In this document: positions 25,719 through 33,493 of the stretch, in pieces
How positions within the stretch are numbered: position 1 is the stretch's first letter
Layout: every line of letters starts with the position of its first letter
Origin: Ostreococcus lucimarinus
Lineage: Eukaryota
DNA: 64,000 nt
NCBI GenBank assembly: GCA_000092065.1
Contig: CP000581.1
Strand: one strand, 5' to 3'
The notes under the pieces: generated by a model
Database searches by the model: none
Seen by the model: only the letters and a program-made list of their open reading frames with translations
Told to the model about the DNA's origin: nothing
Program-made: the position numbers and the translations under genes

Positions 25719-26024
25719 GTTGTAGTAAATAGAAGAGCGCCGTCTTCGCCTCTCCTGCCTCACACAGCGACGTTCGAGCCGCGCCACGCCCGCTCCTCGA
25801 CGAACGCGAACGTCCGCGCGCCCGCAACCATTCGTCACGCATTCGCCCTTCGCGGCGTCGCACGCGCCGCGTTCGCCAAGCCGCCGTCGACGGATTACTT
25901 TCGACAGTCGACGTCGACACTTTTCGCGACTTCGTCGTCGATTTGCCACGGCGCACGCGCGTTCGGAGACTTGACGAGCGCGCGAGTCGTGCGAACGCTT
26001 TCGACGACGAGCGAAAGCGACGCG

Positions 26025-27680
26025 ATGGCGACTTCATCGCCTCGTACGCGGGTGATTGTTTGGTTTCGGAACGACTTGAGGTTGTTGGACAACGCCGTCG
26101 TCGCTCGAGCGGCGGCTCTGCGCGGACAATCGGACGCCGCTGAGGTCGTCCCGGTGTACGTGTTCGATGAGACGTTTTTTAAGACATCCAAGCGCGGTCT
26201 CGCGCGCTTCGGTGCAGGGCGTGGGAAGTTTACGATTGAGTGCGTGGACGACTTGAAGCGCGCGCTTCGCGGCGTCGGCAGCGACTTGTTGGTGCGTTGC
26301 GGCAAGACGGAGGATGTCATCACCGAGCTCACGCTCACGGGTGCGAACGACAAAACGATCGTGCTCACGCAAACAGAGGTGACGAGCGAGGAGACTGATA
26401 TGGATAGGGCGGTAGAGAGGGCGTCGAAGGAGCGAGCTCGAAGCGGCGGCGCGTCGGCGTCGATGGAGCGTCTGTGGGGGTCGACACTTTACCACGCCGA
26501 CGACCTCCCGTACGACTTCGCCGGAGGTCTACACGATTTACCAGATGTGTTCACGCCATTTCGGAACAAGGTAGAGTCAAAGTGCTCAGTGCGAGCGGTA
26601 GTGCCCGCGCCGACGGCGAACGCTCTGGGAAGCGTACCGGCGTCCGTGGCGGGGTTGGATTGGATGCCTGAACCGAAGGATTTGCCTTTCGCGTCGGCCG
26701 AAATCGCCCCGGCGTGCGAAAAATGGCTCAAAGATGGCGCAGACGAGCGCTCTGTGCTCGAATTCAAGGGTGGCGAATCCCAAGCCTTGGCTCGCGTCAA
26801 GTATTATTTGTGGGATAGCGATTTGCTCGCGACGTACTTTGAAACTCGCAACGGGATGCTGGGCGGCGACTACAGCACCAAGCTCGCACCGTGGCTCGCC
26901 TTAGGATGTGTGTCGCCGCGCTACGTCGTGAGCGAGATTCGACGCTACGAGAGCGCGCGCGTTGAGAACAAGAGCACGTATTGGGTAATATTTGAGTTGA
27001 TATGGAGAGACTTCTTCAAGTTCTTCGCGCTGAAACACGGGAACAAAATCTTCCATCTCGACGGTACGGCTAACAGGACGGCATCTTGGAAGAGTGATGA
27101 GAAGATCTTGAAGGCATGGAAGACAGGCACGACCGGATACCCACTCATCGACGCCAACATGCGCGAACTCGCGGCGACTGGTTTCATGTCGAATCGAGGG
27201 CGACAAAACGTCGCCTCGTGGCTCGCCCTCGACGCCGGCGTCGACTGGAGACACGGTGCCGATTGGTTCGAGCACCACTTATTGGATTACGACACCGCTT
27301 CTAACTGGGGGAACTGGTGCGCCGCCGCCGGTATGACGGGCGGTCGCATCAACCGCTTCAACATCGCCAAGCAAACCAAGGACTACGATCCCTCTGGCGA
27401 CTACGTCAAGCGTTGGATCCCGGAACTCCGCGAGATCCCCGCGGCGTACATCACCGAGCCCAACCAAGCCCCTCGCGAGCTTCGCGATCGAATCAGTCTC
27501 GATTACCCGAACAAGCTCAATCTCCCGAGGCGTGACTTCACGGAAATGGGGTCTCCGCCCGGGCCGAAGCGCGGCGGCGGTCGCGCCGCCGGCGGCGGTC
27601 GAGGCGGTCGAGGCGGGCGTTCGAAATCTCGCGGCCCCAAGGCCCACGCCGTGAGCGTGTACGACCACGTGTACGGTTAA
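26025..27680 (+). CDS. CRYD: Cryptochrome DASH (photolyase/cryptochrome family) with a C-terminal RGG/Gly-Arg-rich tail
   Basis: Photolyase N-domain 'VIVWFRNDLRLLDNAVV'; FAD-binding region 'MRELAATGFMSNRGRQNVASWLALDAGVDWRHGADWFEHHLLDYDTASNWGNWCAAAGM' is typical of CRY-DASH; tail 'GPKRGGGRAAGGGRGGRGGRSKSRG'. The first ATG is 26025 (the track start 25971 is TTG). Confidence 0.9.
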   Translation: MATSSPRTRVIVWFRNDLRLLDNAVVARAAALRGQSDAAEVVPVYVFDETFFKTSKRGLARFGAGRGKFTIECVDDLKRALRGVGSDLLVRCGKTEDVITELTLTGANDKTIVLTQTEVTSEETDMDRAVERASKERARSGGASASMERLWGSTLYHADDLPYDFAGGLHDLPDVFTPFRNKVESKCSVRAVVPAPTANALGSVPASVAGLDWMPEPKDLPFASAEIAPACEKWLKDGADERSVLEFKGGESQALARVKYYLWDSDLLATYFETRNGMLGGDYSTKLAPWLALGCVSPRYVVSEIRRYESARVENKSTYWVIFELIWRDFFKFFALKHGNKIFHLDGTANRTASWKSDEKILKAWKTGTTGYPLIDANMRELAATGFMSNRGRQNVASWLALDAGVDWRHGADWFEHHLLDYDTASNWGNWCAAAGMTGGRINRFNIAKQTKDYDPSGDYVKRWIPELREIPAAYITEPNQAPRELRDRISLDYPNKLNLPRRDFTEMGSPPGPKRGGGRAAGGGRGGRGGRSKSRGPKAHAVSVYDHVYG

Positions 27681-28566: not shown

Positions 28567-30786
28567 ATGTTTGCCAACTCGTTGGCGCTTCGGGCGTCGA
28601 GCGCGCCTCGCGCACTCCGACAACCACAGCATGGTGCGTCGAGAAATTCTCCTCGCCATAACAGAGTTGTTCGTGTCGTTCGCGCGCAAGCCAGCGATGC
28701 ATCCCGCGCCAATGTGAACGCGACGGGTACGATGCGAAGAGAAAGCCTTCGTGTGACGCGACTTCGCGATTTGGTTGAAATTTCCCCGCACGTGTGGGAA
28801 GAATATTCCGATCATTCCCCAGGTTCGGTCTCCGAACTCGGCTCCAAGCAAGGTCAAGTTTTCAAGGAGCTATTGCTCGAGTCCCCGCACTTCCGCGTGT
28901 ACTCTTACAACGTCTTACCGTCGGGAGAACATTCCGTCAAGTTTTTGATGGGTTCGCCTCGCATGGACAGCCTCGACGACGTGTCACGAGTCACCACCGT
29001 GGTCGCGAACGCTGACGAAGGATTAATCAACCTTGTCCCTGAGACGAACGGCAGCGGCTTCGTCGCCGAGATTCGATTCCCTCTGCCAGAGTTGGAGACA
29101 CGAACGAAGAAGAATGAGGGCATGTCATCCACGCAAATTCGCGAGAGGCGCCTCAACGGCCTCGTTCGCGCCTTGGAGGAACAAATCATCGACGAAAGTC
29201 TCATCTGTCTCATGGAAAAGGGCAGTGACGATCGATCAGTCTTCACCGGTGAGGCACGCTTGAACAAGTACTTCACCGGCATGCGCGCTCGCCCCAGCGA
29301 ATTGCTTCATCGAGGCACGTGCACGTCGTCTTCTCCCACCGCCGGCGCGCTCCAAGCGTCTCGGGACATGCTTCTCAGACTTTGGGATCTCGAAGAAAAC
29401 GCCGACGAGGCACTCTGCGAAGAAGTTCGCGAACGCGTCGAGGCGTTATTCTGCGACGGCAACGGTCGAATGGTTATCCATCCGTCTGGCACCGACGCGG
29501 AGATGGTTCCGCTCCTTCAAGCAATCCTCGCCTCTCGCGCTCTCAAGCGCCAAGCTGGTTTGACAGACATCAAAGGTGACGTAGTCAACATCGTGTGCTG
29601 CGCCGGTGAAGTCGGAAGCGGCACCACTCAAGCAGCAGAAGGGAAATTCTTCTCGAGCACTGTCCCGTTGGGCGGTTACGGCGTCGTCAACGGCGAGGAG
29701 TTGCCAGCAATTCACAAGCTGTGCAACATGAAATCCATCGAGCTAGTTGCACGATCGTCCGTCAACGGGGATCTACTCGATGAATACGACGATATGGTTG
29801 AAAGTACGACGCGCAAAGCTCTCGTGGAGAATCCGCACAGAGTCGTCGTCGTGCACTCAGTTGCCGGAAGTAAGACGGGTCTATGCGTCCCGTCACCAGT
29901 CGTCGCCGAGAAACTCAAATCAGAGTTTGGTGACCGCATCATCTCTGTTCTCGATGCGTGTCAAATGCGCAGTGGTCCGTCGCTGATTCCTCGCTGGCTC
30001 AATGAAATGGGTCCTGTTCTCATGACGAGCTCCAAGTTCTACGGCGGTCCGTCCTTTGGAAGTGGCGTCTTTGTGCCCCACGCGTGCTTGGCGAAGATGA
30101 ACGAAGAATTGGAAGCGGAACCCGCGAGTGCGGTCGTTGACATCGCCGAGGCGTGCGCATCCTATCTCACGTCTTATGATATCGGTCCTCTCATGCCGCG
30201 CCTTCACGACGCCATGCCGCCTGGTTTCTGTAACACGGGCTTGCTCCTTCGTTGGGCCGCCGGCTTGTACGAGATGGAATCGCTCAACGACGCCACCACC
30301 AACGCCGGTGGCACGGCAGTCGCTGAAGAAAAACTCCGTTCGTGGGTCTTTGCGATGCGCGAAGAGGCACAACGGCATGCTCCCGAGATCGAATTCGTTC
30401 AACCGATTGACTACGAGAACGAGTGGCAGTACGGTGGCGTGAACACGATTATCTCTGTTCGCTTGCGCAATCCTGCTGGAGAATATTACTCGACGCCCGA
30501 GTTGAAGAAAATATATGGTTTGATGCACTCTGATATCTCGGAGCATCTCGCCGACGGTAGCACCGACGAAGAACGTCGCGTTGCTTCGAAGAGATGTCTC
30601 ACTGGGCAACCGGTGGACATTCCCGAAGGTCCCGTGTTGCGTGTTGTTCTGGGCGCCGCACAGCTCACCGATTTGGTTAGCGGTGCCCAAACCTTGGAAG
30701 AGATGATGAAAGAAGATCGTGATCTCTTCAAGAAACTCGTTTTGATCAGCCGACAGTTTTTGCACCTGACGAGCTATGAGTTGTAG
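28567..30786 (+). CDS. Chloroplast-targeted two-domain protein: N-terminal domain of unknown function plus C-terminal class-V aminotransferase-fold (cysteine desulfurase/MOCOS-like) PLP domain
   Basis: Transit-peptide-like N-terminus 'MFANSLALRASSAPRALRQ'. The C-terminal half has class-V fold markers 'VISVLDACQMRSG' (Asp-x-x-Gln, cf. IscS 'HVDATQ') and 'LMTSSKFYGGPSFGSGVFVP' (PLP Lys, cf. 'SGHKxYGPxGxGxL'). The N-terminal ~250 aa match nothing I recognise. Confidence 0.55.
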   Translation: MFANSLALRASSAPRALRQPQHGASRNSPRHNRVVRVVRAQASDASRANVNATGTMRRESLRVTRLRDLVEISPHVWEEYSDHSPGSVSELGSKQGQVFKELLLESPHFRVYSYNVLPSGEHSVKFLMGSPRMDSLDDVSRVTTVVANADEGLINLVPETNGSGFVAEIRFPLPELETRTKKNEGMSSTQIRERRLNGLVRALEEQIIDESLICLMEKGSDDRSVFTGEARLNKYFTGMRARPSELLHRGTCTSSSPTAGALQASRDMLLRLWDLEENADEALCEEVRERVEALFCDGNGRMVIHPSGTDAEMVPLLQAILASRALKRQAGLTDIKGDVVNIVCCAGEVGSGTTQAAEGKFFSSTVPLGGYGVVNGEELPAIHKLCNMKSIELVARSSVNGDLLDEYDDMVESTTRKALVENPHRVVVVHSVAGSKTGLCVPSPVVAEKLKSEFGDRIISVLDACQMRSGPSLIPRWLNEMGPVLMTSSKFYGGPSFGSGVFVPHACLAKMNEELEAEPASAVVDIAEACASYLTSYDIGPLMPRLHDAMPPGFCNTGLLLRWAAGLYEMESLNDATTNAGGTAVAEEKLRSWVFAMREEAQRHAPEIEFVQPIDYENEWQYGGVNTIISVRLRNPAGEYYSTPELKKIYGLMHSDISEHLADGSTDEERRVASKRCLTGQPVDIPEGPVLRVVLGAAQLTDLVSGAQTLEEMMKEDRDLFKKLVLISRQFLHLTSYEL

Positions 30787-31005
30787 CGTCGCTTCCAGCG
30801 AGAAGCCGCTCCTCCCAAAGTAGTTCGCGACTGTCCCTGGGTTGTCGTATTTTTCGAATTGCAACGTTAAAAATGAACGATTGAGCATCTCTCGAGATGA
30901 CTTTATGACTTGTGTGAATTAATGGTGAATTAGTTAGAGTGTTGTAGAATTATGACCACGAATGTTCTAGTTGCCTCTGCCGTCAAATTACAAACTCGAA
31001 GTACT

Positions 31006-32362: not shown

Positions 32363-33247
32363 CTACGCTTTCTTGGCCTTCTTCGCCGGCTTTGCGTCTC
32401 CGGCTTTGACGGCGCCTCGCGCGAAGACGAAATTGAACTCGGACGACGCGGCGGCGTCAAACTTCCAGCACCCGTCCGTGCCCCGAAAGGTTTTCAGATC
32501 TTCGGGCGAAGCCACTCGAGCGTCGACGCAGTGTCGAACCATGGCTCCTCGAGCTTGTTTGGCGTACACTGCGGGTCCGGGAAACGTCATCGTGTACACG
32601 TCTACGCCTCGCTTTGTCAACGCCTCTCGCTTGACCGATTTCCAGTACTCTTGCGACGCGCAGTTCACGACGAACGGCCTCGCGCTCGATTCACCACTCG
32701 TCGCCGCTTGTTCGTCCAAATCGTCCGCGATGGCGAGCGCGATGTCTTCCCCCCAATACGCGTATAAATCCTTGCCGGACGGCGCCCACTTCGTTCCCAT
32801 CTCGAGTCGGTACGGCGCGATGGCGTCGTACGGCCGCAGGCAACCGTACAACCCGCTTAAAATCCTCAAATGTTTCTGTAAATACGCCTTCTCCTCTTCC
32901 GTCTTCAACGTCGACGCCTTCAAGTGCCTGAATGCCGGCCCATCGAACGCCAAAGCGCACGCCTTCGTCGCCGCTTTCTCAAAGTTTCCGAATCGCTCGA
33001 CGTTGAGCTTCGCGATGGCGTCCGACACCCCCATGAGCGTCTTCAGGTCGCCCGCCTTGAGTTCGCGCGCCTCGCGCGCGATCGCGTTCGCTCGTTCCGC
33101 GAATCTCGGTCGCGTCGCGCGCGTCGCATCGCTCGCGTTCATCGCCGCCTCGTCCAACGCCTTGGCCGGGCTCAGGACGACGACGAACGGCGTCGCGCTC
33201 GCGCTCGCGCTCGCGCTCGCGTCTTCGCGCGTCGTCGTCGCCTTCAT
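32363..33247 (-). CDS. yaaA: YaaA/UPF0246 (DUF328) peroxide-stress-family protein
   Basis: 'VVVLSPAKALD', 'LMGVSDAIAKLNVERF', 'HLRILSGLYGCLRPYDAIAPYRLEMGTKWAPSGKDLYAYWGEDI' and 'VNCASQEYWKSV' align along the E. coli YaaA length. Start at ATG 33247 ('MKATTTRED'); an upstream Thr/Ser-rich extension to 33367 is possible. Confidence 0.8.
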   Translation of the reverse strand: MKATTTREDASASASASATPFVVVLSPAKALDEAAMNASDATRATRPRFAERANAIAREARELKAGDLKTLMGVSDAIAKLNVERFGNFEKAATKACALAFDGPAFRHLKASTLKTEEEKAYLQKHLRILSGLYGCLRPYDAIAPYRLEMGTKWAPSGKDLYAYWGEDIALAIADDLDEQAATSGESSARPFVVNCASQEYWKSVKREALTKRGVDVYTMTFPGPAVYAKQARGAMVRHCVDARVASPEDLKTFRGTDGCWKFDAAASSEFNFVFARGAVKAGDAKPAKKAKKA

Positions 33248-33493
33248 CGTCAGGCTGCGTCGCGCGCGTCGCGTCGACGTCGTCGTCGAGGTCGTCGTCG
33301 TCGAGGTCGTCGTCGAGGTCGTCCCCGTCCTCGTCCTCGTCGCGCACAGACGCGCACACGCGCGCATGACTGACGATCGAACCGTCGAATCGCGCCGACG
33401 TCGGCGCGGCGCCGCGTCTTCGCGCGTGCGTTACTCGGATGGCGTTACCGATGACTGGTGACTGATGACCCGGCGTCAGTGTGAGACACGACG

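Follow-up and report, generated by a model that had tools for sequence, protein, structure and literature searches.

A putative pyridoxal-phosphate enzyme of Ostreococcus lucimarinus represents an orphan fold-type-I family that is repeatedly coupled to a decarboxylase in its relatives

The 64-kb stretch of Ostreococcus lucimarinus DNA analysed here (contig CP000581.1; hereafter the window) carries a long open reading frame (ORF) at positions 28567–30786, which raises the question of what kind of enzyme it encodes. An initial annotation, made from the letters alone, read it as a plastid protein in which ~250 N-terminal residues that could not be placed precede a pyridoxal 5′-phosphate (PLP) domain related to cysteine desulfurases and MOCOS. 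Our analysis keeps the PLP fold and replaces the enzyme subgroup. We consider it probable, while far from certain, that the product is an active fold-type-I (aspartate-aminotransferase) PLP enzyme of an orphan family, which carries out one step of a two-step amine route coupled to a decarboxylase. The strong and repeated coupling of this family to one specific decarboxylase is directly observed.

28567–30786, plus strand: complete single-exon gene, 739 amino acids and a TAG stop (ORF list, translation and full-length homologues).

The coordinates originally proposed were exact, as the ORF list and the translation gave an uninterrupted frame of 739 codons from ATG to TAG, with in-frame stops a few codons 5′ of the ATG, and the peptide strings then quoted were all found in the protein: LDACQ (D463–Q466, nucleotides 29953–29964), SSKFYGGPSFGSG (from S488), HFRVYSYNVLPSGEHSVKFLMGSP and GFVAEIRFPLPE. 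The ORF is a genuine gene rather than a product of chance, because a homologue search with the query matched 75 proteins, including a 100 %-identical environmental protein, because the O. tauri protein XP_003074699/Q01FE5 is 80 % identical, and because homologues from Mantoniella and Pycnococcus are represented by complete, full-length MMETSP transcripts. The homologues align collinearly with the query over its whole length. The O. tauri entry is labelled ‘unnamed product’, and its UniRef label is ‘Pyridoxal phosphate-dependent transferase’.

Searches of Pfam-A, NCBIfam and the PDB chains with the query yielded no significant match, even at E≤10, and family profiles built from 35 and 66 members found none in Pfam, NCBIfam or PDB; the sole non-random hint from the profile-versus-PDB search was a weak alignment over the S-G-T loop to a Rickettsia NifS-like protein (E 0.027). 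Ten further bacterial and eukaryotic family members had no Pfam domain on the core, and the hidden Markov model (HMM) of Aminotran_5 (PF00266) matched neither the query, even at E≤10, nor ten relatives. When the family profile was compared by hhalign to an approximate sequence of Escherichia coli IscS, only the SGT loop was aligned, at a reported probability of 0.5 %. At the level of sequence, the protein therefore lies outside Aminotran_5 and any other described PLP family. The fold is nevertheless recognizable by structure prediction. An AlphaFold model computed from a 35-sequence alignment was confident (predicted local distance difference test, pLDDT, 85.8; predicted template modelling score, pTM, 0.84), and Foldseek returned 834 PDB matches at E≤1e-3, of which all among the matches listed were fold-type-I PLP enzymes. 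The model has the large seven-stranded α/β domain and the C-terminal small domain of this fold, which upholds the PLP domain first proposed. The ranking among fold-type-I subfamilies was flat and low, with class V and group II marginally nearest, which we read as the sign of a deep lineage of its own within the superfamily.

This family is large and widely distributed, and it has neither a name nor a characterized member. A family profile scan of 1.84 billion cluster representatives recovered 2,734 at E≤1e-3 and 1,372 at E≤1e-30. The query matched the family profile, which includes the query itself, over its full length with 795 bits, and possesses every family-invariant residue of the core (GxDxR-Y-...-PSGTDAE-...-GEVGSGT-...-SKTG-...-DxxQxR-...-TxSKFxGGPxF-...-NxGxxxRW-...-GQPV-...-R). 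No published description of the family was found in the literature on the operon, on paralogues resembling diaminopimelate (DAP) decarboxylase (DAPDC), or on algal cysteate and taurine synthesis. Conservation was counted over 251 members aligned to the family profile, and residue roles were assigned by motif position within the fold. The segments concerned are as follows.

29326–30231, plus strand: large PLP-binding domain, residues 254–555.
29482–29502, plus strand: P306-S-G-T-D-A-E312, predicted phosphate-binding loop where a helix starts, corresponding to class-V ‘TSGxTES’ (conservation, weak alignments).
29605–29625, plus strand: G347-E348-V-G350-S-G-T353, family-specific second glycine-rich loop, where class V has the ring-stacking ‘E-H’ (conservation).
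29854–29880, plus strand: H430-S-V-A-G-S435-K436-T-G438, counterpart of class-V ‘H-x-S-N-x-x-G’ (conservation).
29953–29970, plus strand: D463-A-C-Q466-M-R468, predicted Asp to the pyridine nitrogen and Gln to O3′ (class-V-like D-x-x-Q), with the family-specific R468 (conservation, fold position).
30025–30057, plus strand: T487-S-S489-K490-F-Y-G-G-P495-S-F497, with predicted Schiff-base lysine K490 (conservation).
30232–30783, plus strand: linker helices and the protein’s own C-terminal small domain, residues 556–739 (model, conservation).

Fold-type-I enzymes carry the Schiff-base lysine some 25–30 residues past the aspartate that holds the pyridine nitrogen, together with a glycine-rich phosphate loop. 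Here D463 and Q466 (250 of 251 members each) precede S489 and K490 (251/251 each), with 27 residues between D463 and K490, and the S307-G308-T309 loop is present (S307 in 249, G308 in 248), aligning weakly with the SGTE loop of the NifS-like protein and, in hhalign, with IscS. The initial annotation had thus picked the likely pyridine-nitrogen Asp/O3′ Gln pair and Schiff-base lysine correctly, and both the D-x-x-Q motif and the spacing resemble class V. D-A-C-Q is invariant, but the lysine motif reads T-S-S-K, with serine where class V has histidine or glutamine; the T487–F497 peptide, used as a search pattern, retrieved 124 bacterial relatives. Other strongly conserved positions are K436, a second invariant lysine (251/251), with H430 (241) and S435 (226); E348 (250) and G350 (249) in the second glycine-rich loop, which may bind an anion or the substrate; and R468 (251). 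The C-terminal part holds N556-x-G558-x3-R562-W563, G-Q681-P-V683 and R692, where R562 is found in 251 members, W563 in 248, Q681 in 242 and R692 in 243. T309, R396, T-G438, T487, F497, N556, G558 and P-V683 are likewise invariant or nearly so. K490 would form the internal aldimine, D463 would hold the pyridine nitrogen and Q466/S435 the O3′, S307/T309 and T487/S489 would hold the phosphate, and R692 is the predicted α-carboxylate-binding arginine, because it lies in an ‘xLRxxxG’ strand resembling that of class-V enzymes. The substrate may well be anionic, since there are five invariant arginines (the additional ones being R223, R396, R468 and R562) and a GSGT loop.

The same motifs had led to the proposal of a plastid enzyme that mobilizes sulfur or selenium, akin to NifS/IscS/SufS, MOCOS or selenocysteine lyase, and that forms an enzyme-bound persulfide from cysteine. 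We regard this as very unlikely. No cysteine is invariant among the 251 members (C252 is present in 74 %, and C677, the only C-terminal cysteine, in 49 %), and a persulfide mechanism of the NifS/IscS/SufS type is ruled out because a conserved cysteine is lacking. Neither MOSC nor MOSC_N was detected in the Pfam search, the protein ending at residue 739 with its own small domain, and MOCOS is excluded because there is no MOSC domain. Nor were the sulfur acceptors SufE, IscU or TusA among the recurring neighbours checked in 80 bacterial loci, which comprised a decarboxylase, ATP-grasp ligases, sodium:dicarboxylate symporters (SDF), AMP-ligases and LysR regulators. The subgroup first suggested is thus wrong or unsupported.

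These 80 loci, drawn from Actinomycetota, Myxococcota, Planctomycetota, Acidobacteriota, Rhodothermales, Gemmatimonadota, Proteobacteria and Babeliales, revealed the partner of the family. Among the 72 with enough downstream sequence, the next gene encoded a protein of the ornithine/DAP/arginine-decarboxylase fold in 47, and pairs were on the same strand in 48 of 49 cases, with a median gap of −4 nt and an exact 4-nt stop/start overlap in 14. The decarboxylase is also fused to the family core, N- or C-terminally, in 13 representatives, among them proteins of the oomycetes Aphanomyces euteiches/cochlioides, of Chromera velia and of other eukaryotes. In the Aphanomyces fusion (P0130), the decarboxylase domain (residues 754–1125) has FAVSACP where its relatives have FAVKSCP, with loss of the PLP lysine and of HVGSQG; it is probably inactive and yet retained in oomycetes. 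Furthermore, 14 of the 80 loci have ATPgrasp_ST ligases beside the pair, in up to four tandem copies, and such ligases are present also in L001 and L087, whereas sodium:dicarboxylate symporters, AMP-ligases and LysR regulators each recur a few times. Two metagenome-assembled genomes of Acidobacteriota (L065:92–5873 and L080:977–5915) show three to four tandem ATPgrasp_ST matches, in partly overlapping ORFs, upstream of the family gene. Such tandem arrays suggest iterative amide-bond formation on the pathway product. Formylglycine-generating-enzyme (FGE)-sulfatase neighbours were seen in three Pirellulaceae loci and were judged uninformative, being confined to these three and on the opposite strand.

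The partner was considered as LysA and rejected, as it scored 249 bits against the lysA model TIGR01048 (cutoff 298) and carries phenylalanine in place of E343. Its nearest PDB relatives are DAPDC, BtrK and the D-ornithine/D-lysine decarboxylase DokD. In the approximate numbering of E. coli LysA, the partner keeps K54, H191, R271, R307, C342 and D346, while E343 is replaced by phenylalanine in 53 of 54 partner sequences and Y311 is variable, so that the active-site motif is C-F-x-x-D against C-E-S-x-D in LysA. These residues point to an active decarboxylase with a substrate other than DAP. Stand-alone relatives of the partner come from diatoms, brown algae, chlorarachniophytes, Amoebophrya, Aplanochytrium and bacteria, many of them labelled ‘diaminopimelate decarboxylase’, and the C-F motif is present in 117 of the closest 120 (the best 120 of 514). 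A large set among those numbered P0278–P0397, with examples from Skeletonema, Ectocarpus, Laminaria, Lotharella and Amoebophrya, read G-P-L-C-F-x-G-D where LysA has C-E-S-G-D. Judging by this motif, stand-alone proteins of the C-F type are probably not DAP decarboxylases.

The company of the partner bears on whether the enzyme might be a PLP racemase or epimerase that feeds it a D-amino acid. Racemases and epimerases are known in class V and elsewhere in fold type I; the partner falls in the DAPDC/D-ornithine–lysine decarboxylase branch, whose characterized members act mostly on D-stereocentres, and DAPDC and D-ornithine/D-lysine decarboxylase are its closest solved relatives. TM1270 and isoleucine 2-epimerase occur in the structural match list, and the invariant K436 together with Y235 could conceivably serve as the opposite-face base. 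However, BtrK, which is L-specific, is equally close to the partner, there is no structural evidence placing K436 or Y235 on the re-face, and a metabolic rationale is not obvious. We consider a racemase improbable, and give racemization as the reaction type equally little credence.

We therefore return to a fold-type-I enzyme that would catalyse one step of a two-step amino-acid/amine route. It might supply the amino acid that the partner then decarboxylates, or it might turn the amine produced by the partner into a carbonyl compound. For the reaction itself, transamination is put first, tentatively; β- or γ-elimination, lyase or replacement chemistry, including C–S chemistry, is a possible but more doubtful choice. 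Fusions of the core to other enzymes are rare. In one representative (P0064, from a Logan assembly), one ORF encodes a plant-type adenosine 5′-phosphosulfate (APS) reductase (PAPS_reduct plus a glutaredoxin-like domain) and, after it, the family core; sulfite chemistry may be connected with this, though the fusion is known from one cluster. It would fit a C–S (or C–O/C–P) β-lyase or replacement enzyme that works without a catalytic cysteine, as C-DES or Egt2/EgtE do, on a sulfur-containing or anionic amino acid; for example, sulfite could be built into a cysteate-type product whose decarboxylation would give a taurine-like amine. This is unlikely in our judgement, since the APS-reductase fusion is represented by one cluster, on one assembly contig of 3.2 kb, the structural ranking is flat, the partner would have phenylalanine where a polar group might be expected near a sulfonate, and the bacterial loci show no recurrent gene of sulfur metabolism. 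In a second representative (P0194, L087:4018–7581, from a bacterial metagenome), a sphingosine-1-phosphate (S1P)-lyase domain (E 1e-105 to StSPL and 1e-101 to human SPL) is fused to the family core, with an ATPgrasp_ST gene directly 3′; the ~200-residue N-extensions of 47 other, apparently bacterial representatives, mostly of 630–765 residues, are homologous to its linker region. A third (P0062) joins the core to an Alba domain.

How the algal protein relates to these systems was addressed by a neighbour-joining (NJ) tree, which separated a bacterial clade with an adjacent decarboxylase, a bacterial clade without one, and a mostly eukaryotic clade of 74 leaves that holds the green-algal group of the query and all 13 fusions. 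Fusion proteins scored a median of 178 bits against the query, and bacterial members 125 bits. Because it shares a clade with all 13 fusions, and the fusions score higher, the algal gene is best regarded as corresponding, in unfused form, to the eukaryotic fusion. In the alga the enzyme would then act as a stand-alone protein, with a basic presequence for organelle import and an extra N-terminal module of small-domain fold. More speculatively, and with rather less confidence than in the enzyme itself, the algal protein may be the organellar stand-alone form of an unrecognized two- or three-enzyme pathway, consisting of the family, the C-F-type decarboxylase and often an ATP-grasp ligase, that is shared by bacteria, oomycetes, chromerids and green algae and converts an anionic amino acid into an amine-derived metabolite. 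Judging from the APS-reductase and S1P-lyase fusions, candidate products are a sulfonate or phospho-amine (taurine-like or phosphoethanolamine-like), or a new diamine.

Several points weigh against our interpretation. The residue roles follow from motif position rather than from model coordinates, and the NJ tree carries no support values. About one-third of the bacterial loci, forming a separate clade, have no adjacent decarboxylase, so that the coupling is not universal, and the single fusions to unrelated enzymes (P0064, P0194 and P0062) do not indicate any one substrate. A profile search found no partner decarboxylase in the window, which is to be expected because this is a eukaryotic nuclear gene; when eukaryotic decarboxylase domains were used as queries, no Mamiellophyceae partner could be identified among the best 120 of 514 matches. 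Because none was found, the two-step route is extrapolated to the alga from relatives that are only 25–35 % identical. Two abundant candidate partners (P0341 and P0350) were set aside, as they lie on gene-sparse, probably intron-rich contigs, unlike those of Ostreococcus.

The N-terminal region that could not be placed before is not a single domain; it resolves into a presequence, an extra module (residues 83–218) and a segment of the core (residues 219–253).

28567–28731, plus strand: putative organelle-targeting presequence, residues 1–55 (composition, predicted disorder).
28732–28734, plus strand: Met56, alternative start of the deposited O. tauri model (683 amino acids) and of several 684-residue gene calls (cluster member lengths, alignment).
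28813–29220, plus strand: extra N-terminal module, residues 83–218, folded like the small C-terminal domain that fold-type-I PLP enzymes carry.
29221–29325, plus strand: family-specific N-terminal core segment, residues 219–253, G219-x-D221-x-R223 ... Y235 ... C252-T253 (conservation).

Residues 1–55 are rich in alanine and serine, with 9 K/R, 1 D/E and 11 Ala, and residues 1–82 are predicted to be disordered (pLDDT <50 in the AlphaFold model). In composition the first 55 residues look like an organelle presequence, consistent with plastid or mitochondrial import, and their ‘VRVVRAQA’ stretch is kept in the alignment with the Ostreococcus-type homologues P0002 and P0004. Members of the homologue cluster fall into lengths of 683/684 and 733/739 residues. 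The O. tauri protein XP_003074699 begins at the equivalent of Met56, leaving out the upstream in-frame presequence (window positions 28567–28734) with its VRVVRAQA; the N-terminus of that model has probably been mis-annotated, which conceals the targeting peptide. The extra module runs helix, two strands, helix, two strands and long helix, and its sequence was found only in green-algal (prasinophyte) homologues. Sequence comparison gave no signal for the module as a duplicate of the protein’s own C-terminal domain, as a relic of the S1P-lyase domain of P0194, or as a homologue of the ~200-residue bacterial N-extensions. It may have a structural or regulatory role; if the pathway proposed above exists, this additional copy of the small domain would be either a remnant particular to the lineage or an addition that serves regulation. 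In the core segment, the G, D, R, Y and T residues are kept in 235–246 of 251 members and C252 in only 186, and the segment may contribute to the active site.

The shorter O. tauri model could also be taken to mean that the ORF merges two unrelated genes, or hides an intron or frameshift, and the loss of the PLP lysine in the Aphanomyces decarboxylase domain tells us that domains of this system can decay, as in a non-catalytic pseudoenzyme. Both are extremely unlikely for the algal gene. The initial annotation had named such a split as what would overturn it; instead the frame is unbroken, complete transcripts are collinear with it, homologues can be aligned over its entire length, a single confident AlphaFold model spans the N-terminal module and the core (residues 83–739), and the query retains all of the PLP-binding residues.

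The gene is a nuclear gene of Ostreococcus-type Mamiellophyceae. The window is GC-rich (52–67 %) and densely packed with unrelated eukaryotic nuclear genes, including those for a CRY-DASH-type photolyase, a UAA nucleotide-sugar transporter, YaaA, a thioesterase and an EF-hand protein. The 5′ neighbour (25971–27680, plus strand) encodes a photolyase/cryptochrome (DNA_photolyase and FAD_binding_7) with a Gly/Arg-rich, RGG-like C-terminal tail, and the YaaA-family gene on the 3′ side (32363–33367, minus strand) has a Thr/Ser-rich, low-complexity N-terminus. An antisense ORF of 322 residues (29920–30888, minus strand) lies within or overlaps the gene and is most likely a chance ORF of GC-rich DNA.

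What was known already is the PLP-superfamily label in UniProt; our study adds the delineation of the family, its coupling to a decarboxylase and ATP-grasp ligases, the exclusion of a desulfurase, and the extra small-domain module. PLP enzymes are among the most thoroughly catalogued, yet no Pfam or NCBIfam model, solved structure or characterized member exists for this family, which counts ~2,700 clusters at 50 % identity and spans many phyla of bacteria as well as several supergroups of eukaryotes. Its translationally coupled pairing with, and repeated fusion to, one decarboxylase subfamily provides a testable handle on a small-molecule pathway, and the C-F subfamily itself currently goes under the mistaken name ‘diaminopimelate decarboxylase’ in organisms that include diatoms and brown algae. 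For picoalgae of the Ostreococcus type, an abundant group in the ocean, the false lead of an extra plastid cysteine desulfurase is removed, and amine- or osmolyte-type metabolism is indicated instead.

Comparison with known systems places the family apart from its nearest structural neighbours. Class V (PF00266), which includes the cystine C–S lyase C-DES, AGXT, the 2-aminoethylphosphonate (AEP) transaminase PhnW, Egt2/EgtE and NifS/IscS/SufS, shares no HMM-level similarity with it. The class-V S-x-H-K becomes S-S-K, and the stacking histidine of ‘E-H’ gives way to E-V-G-S-G-T; unlike class V, the family has the second invariant lysine K436, extra invariant arginines, ~190 more core residues and the family-specific GxDxR...Y N-segment, and it has no conserved cysteine. 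Group-II PLP decarboxylases (PF00282: aromatic amino-acid, Tyr/Asp (MfnA), 2,4-diaminobutyrate (DABA) and glutamate decarboxylases, and S1P lyase) show no sequence match and have D-A-A-[YW] where the family has D-x-x-Q; P0194 contains a genuine S1P lyase as a domain of its own, fused to the family core, so that group II and this family are distinct units. As a system, the pair shares its logic with dat-ddc, in which a DABA aminotransferase and a DABA decarboxylase make 1,3-diaminopropane and are fused in Vibrio (PDB 2qma, in the structural match listing, is named as a fusion of this type): in both, a fold-type-I PLP enzyme is coupled to an amino-acid decarboxylase by operon or fusion in many phyla. 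However, dat-ddc combines a class III aminotransferase with a group II decarboxylase, whereas here an orphan enzyme is combined with a fold-type-III, DAPDC-like protein, and neither component is homologous at the family level. On the decarboxylase side the closest parallels are BtrK, with the ATP-grasp ligase BtrJ, and SbnH/FslC, with NIS synthetases, which are DAPDC-like proteins acting on non-DAP substrates beside ligases; the partner described here is similar and often accompanied by an ATP-grasp ligase. Those systems contain no fold-type-I PLP enzyme like the query, and the partner of the present family is set apart from their decarboxylases by its C-F-x-x-D motif.

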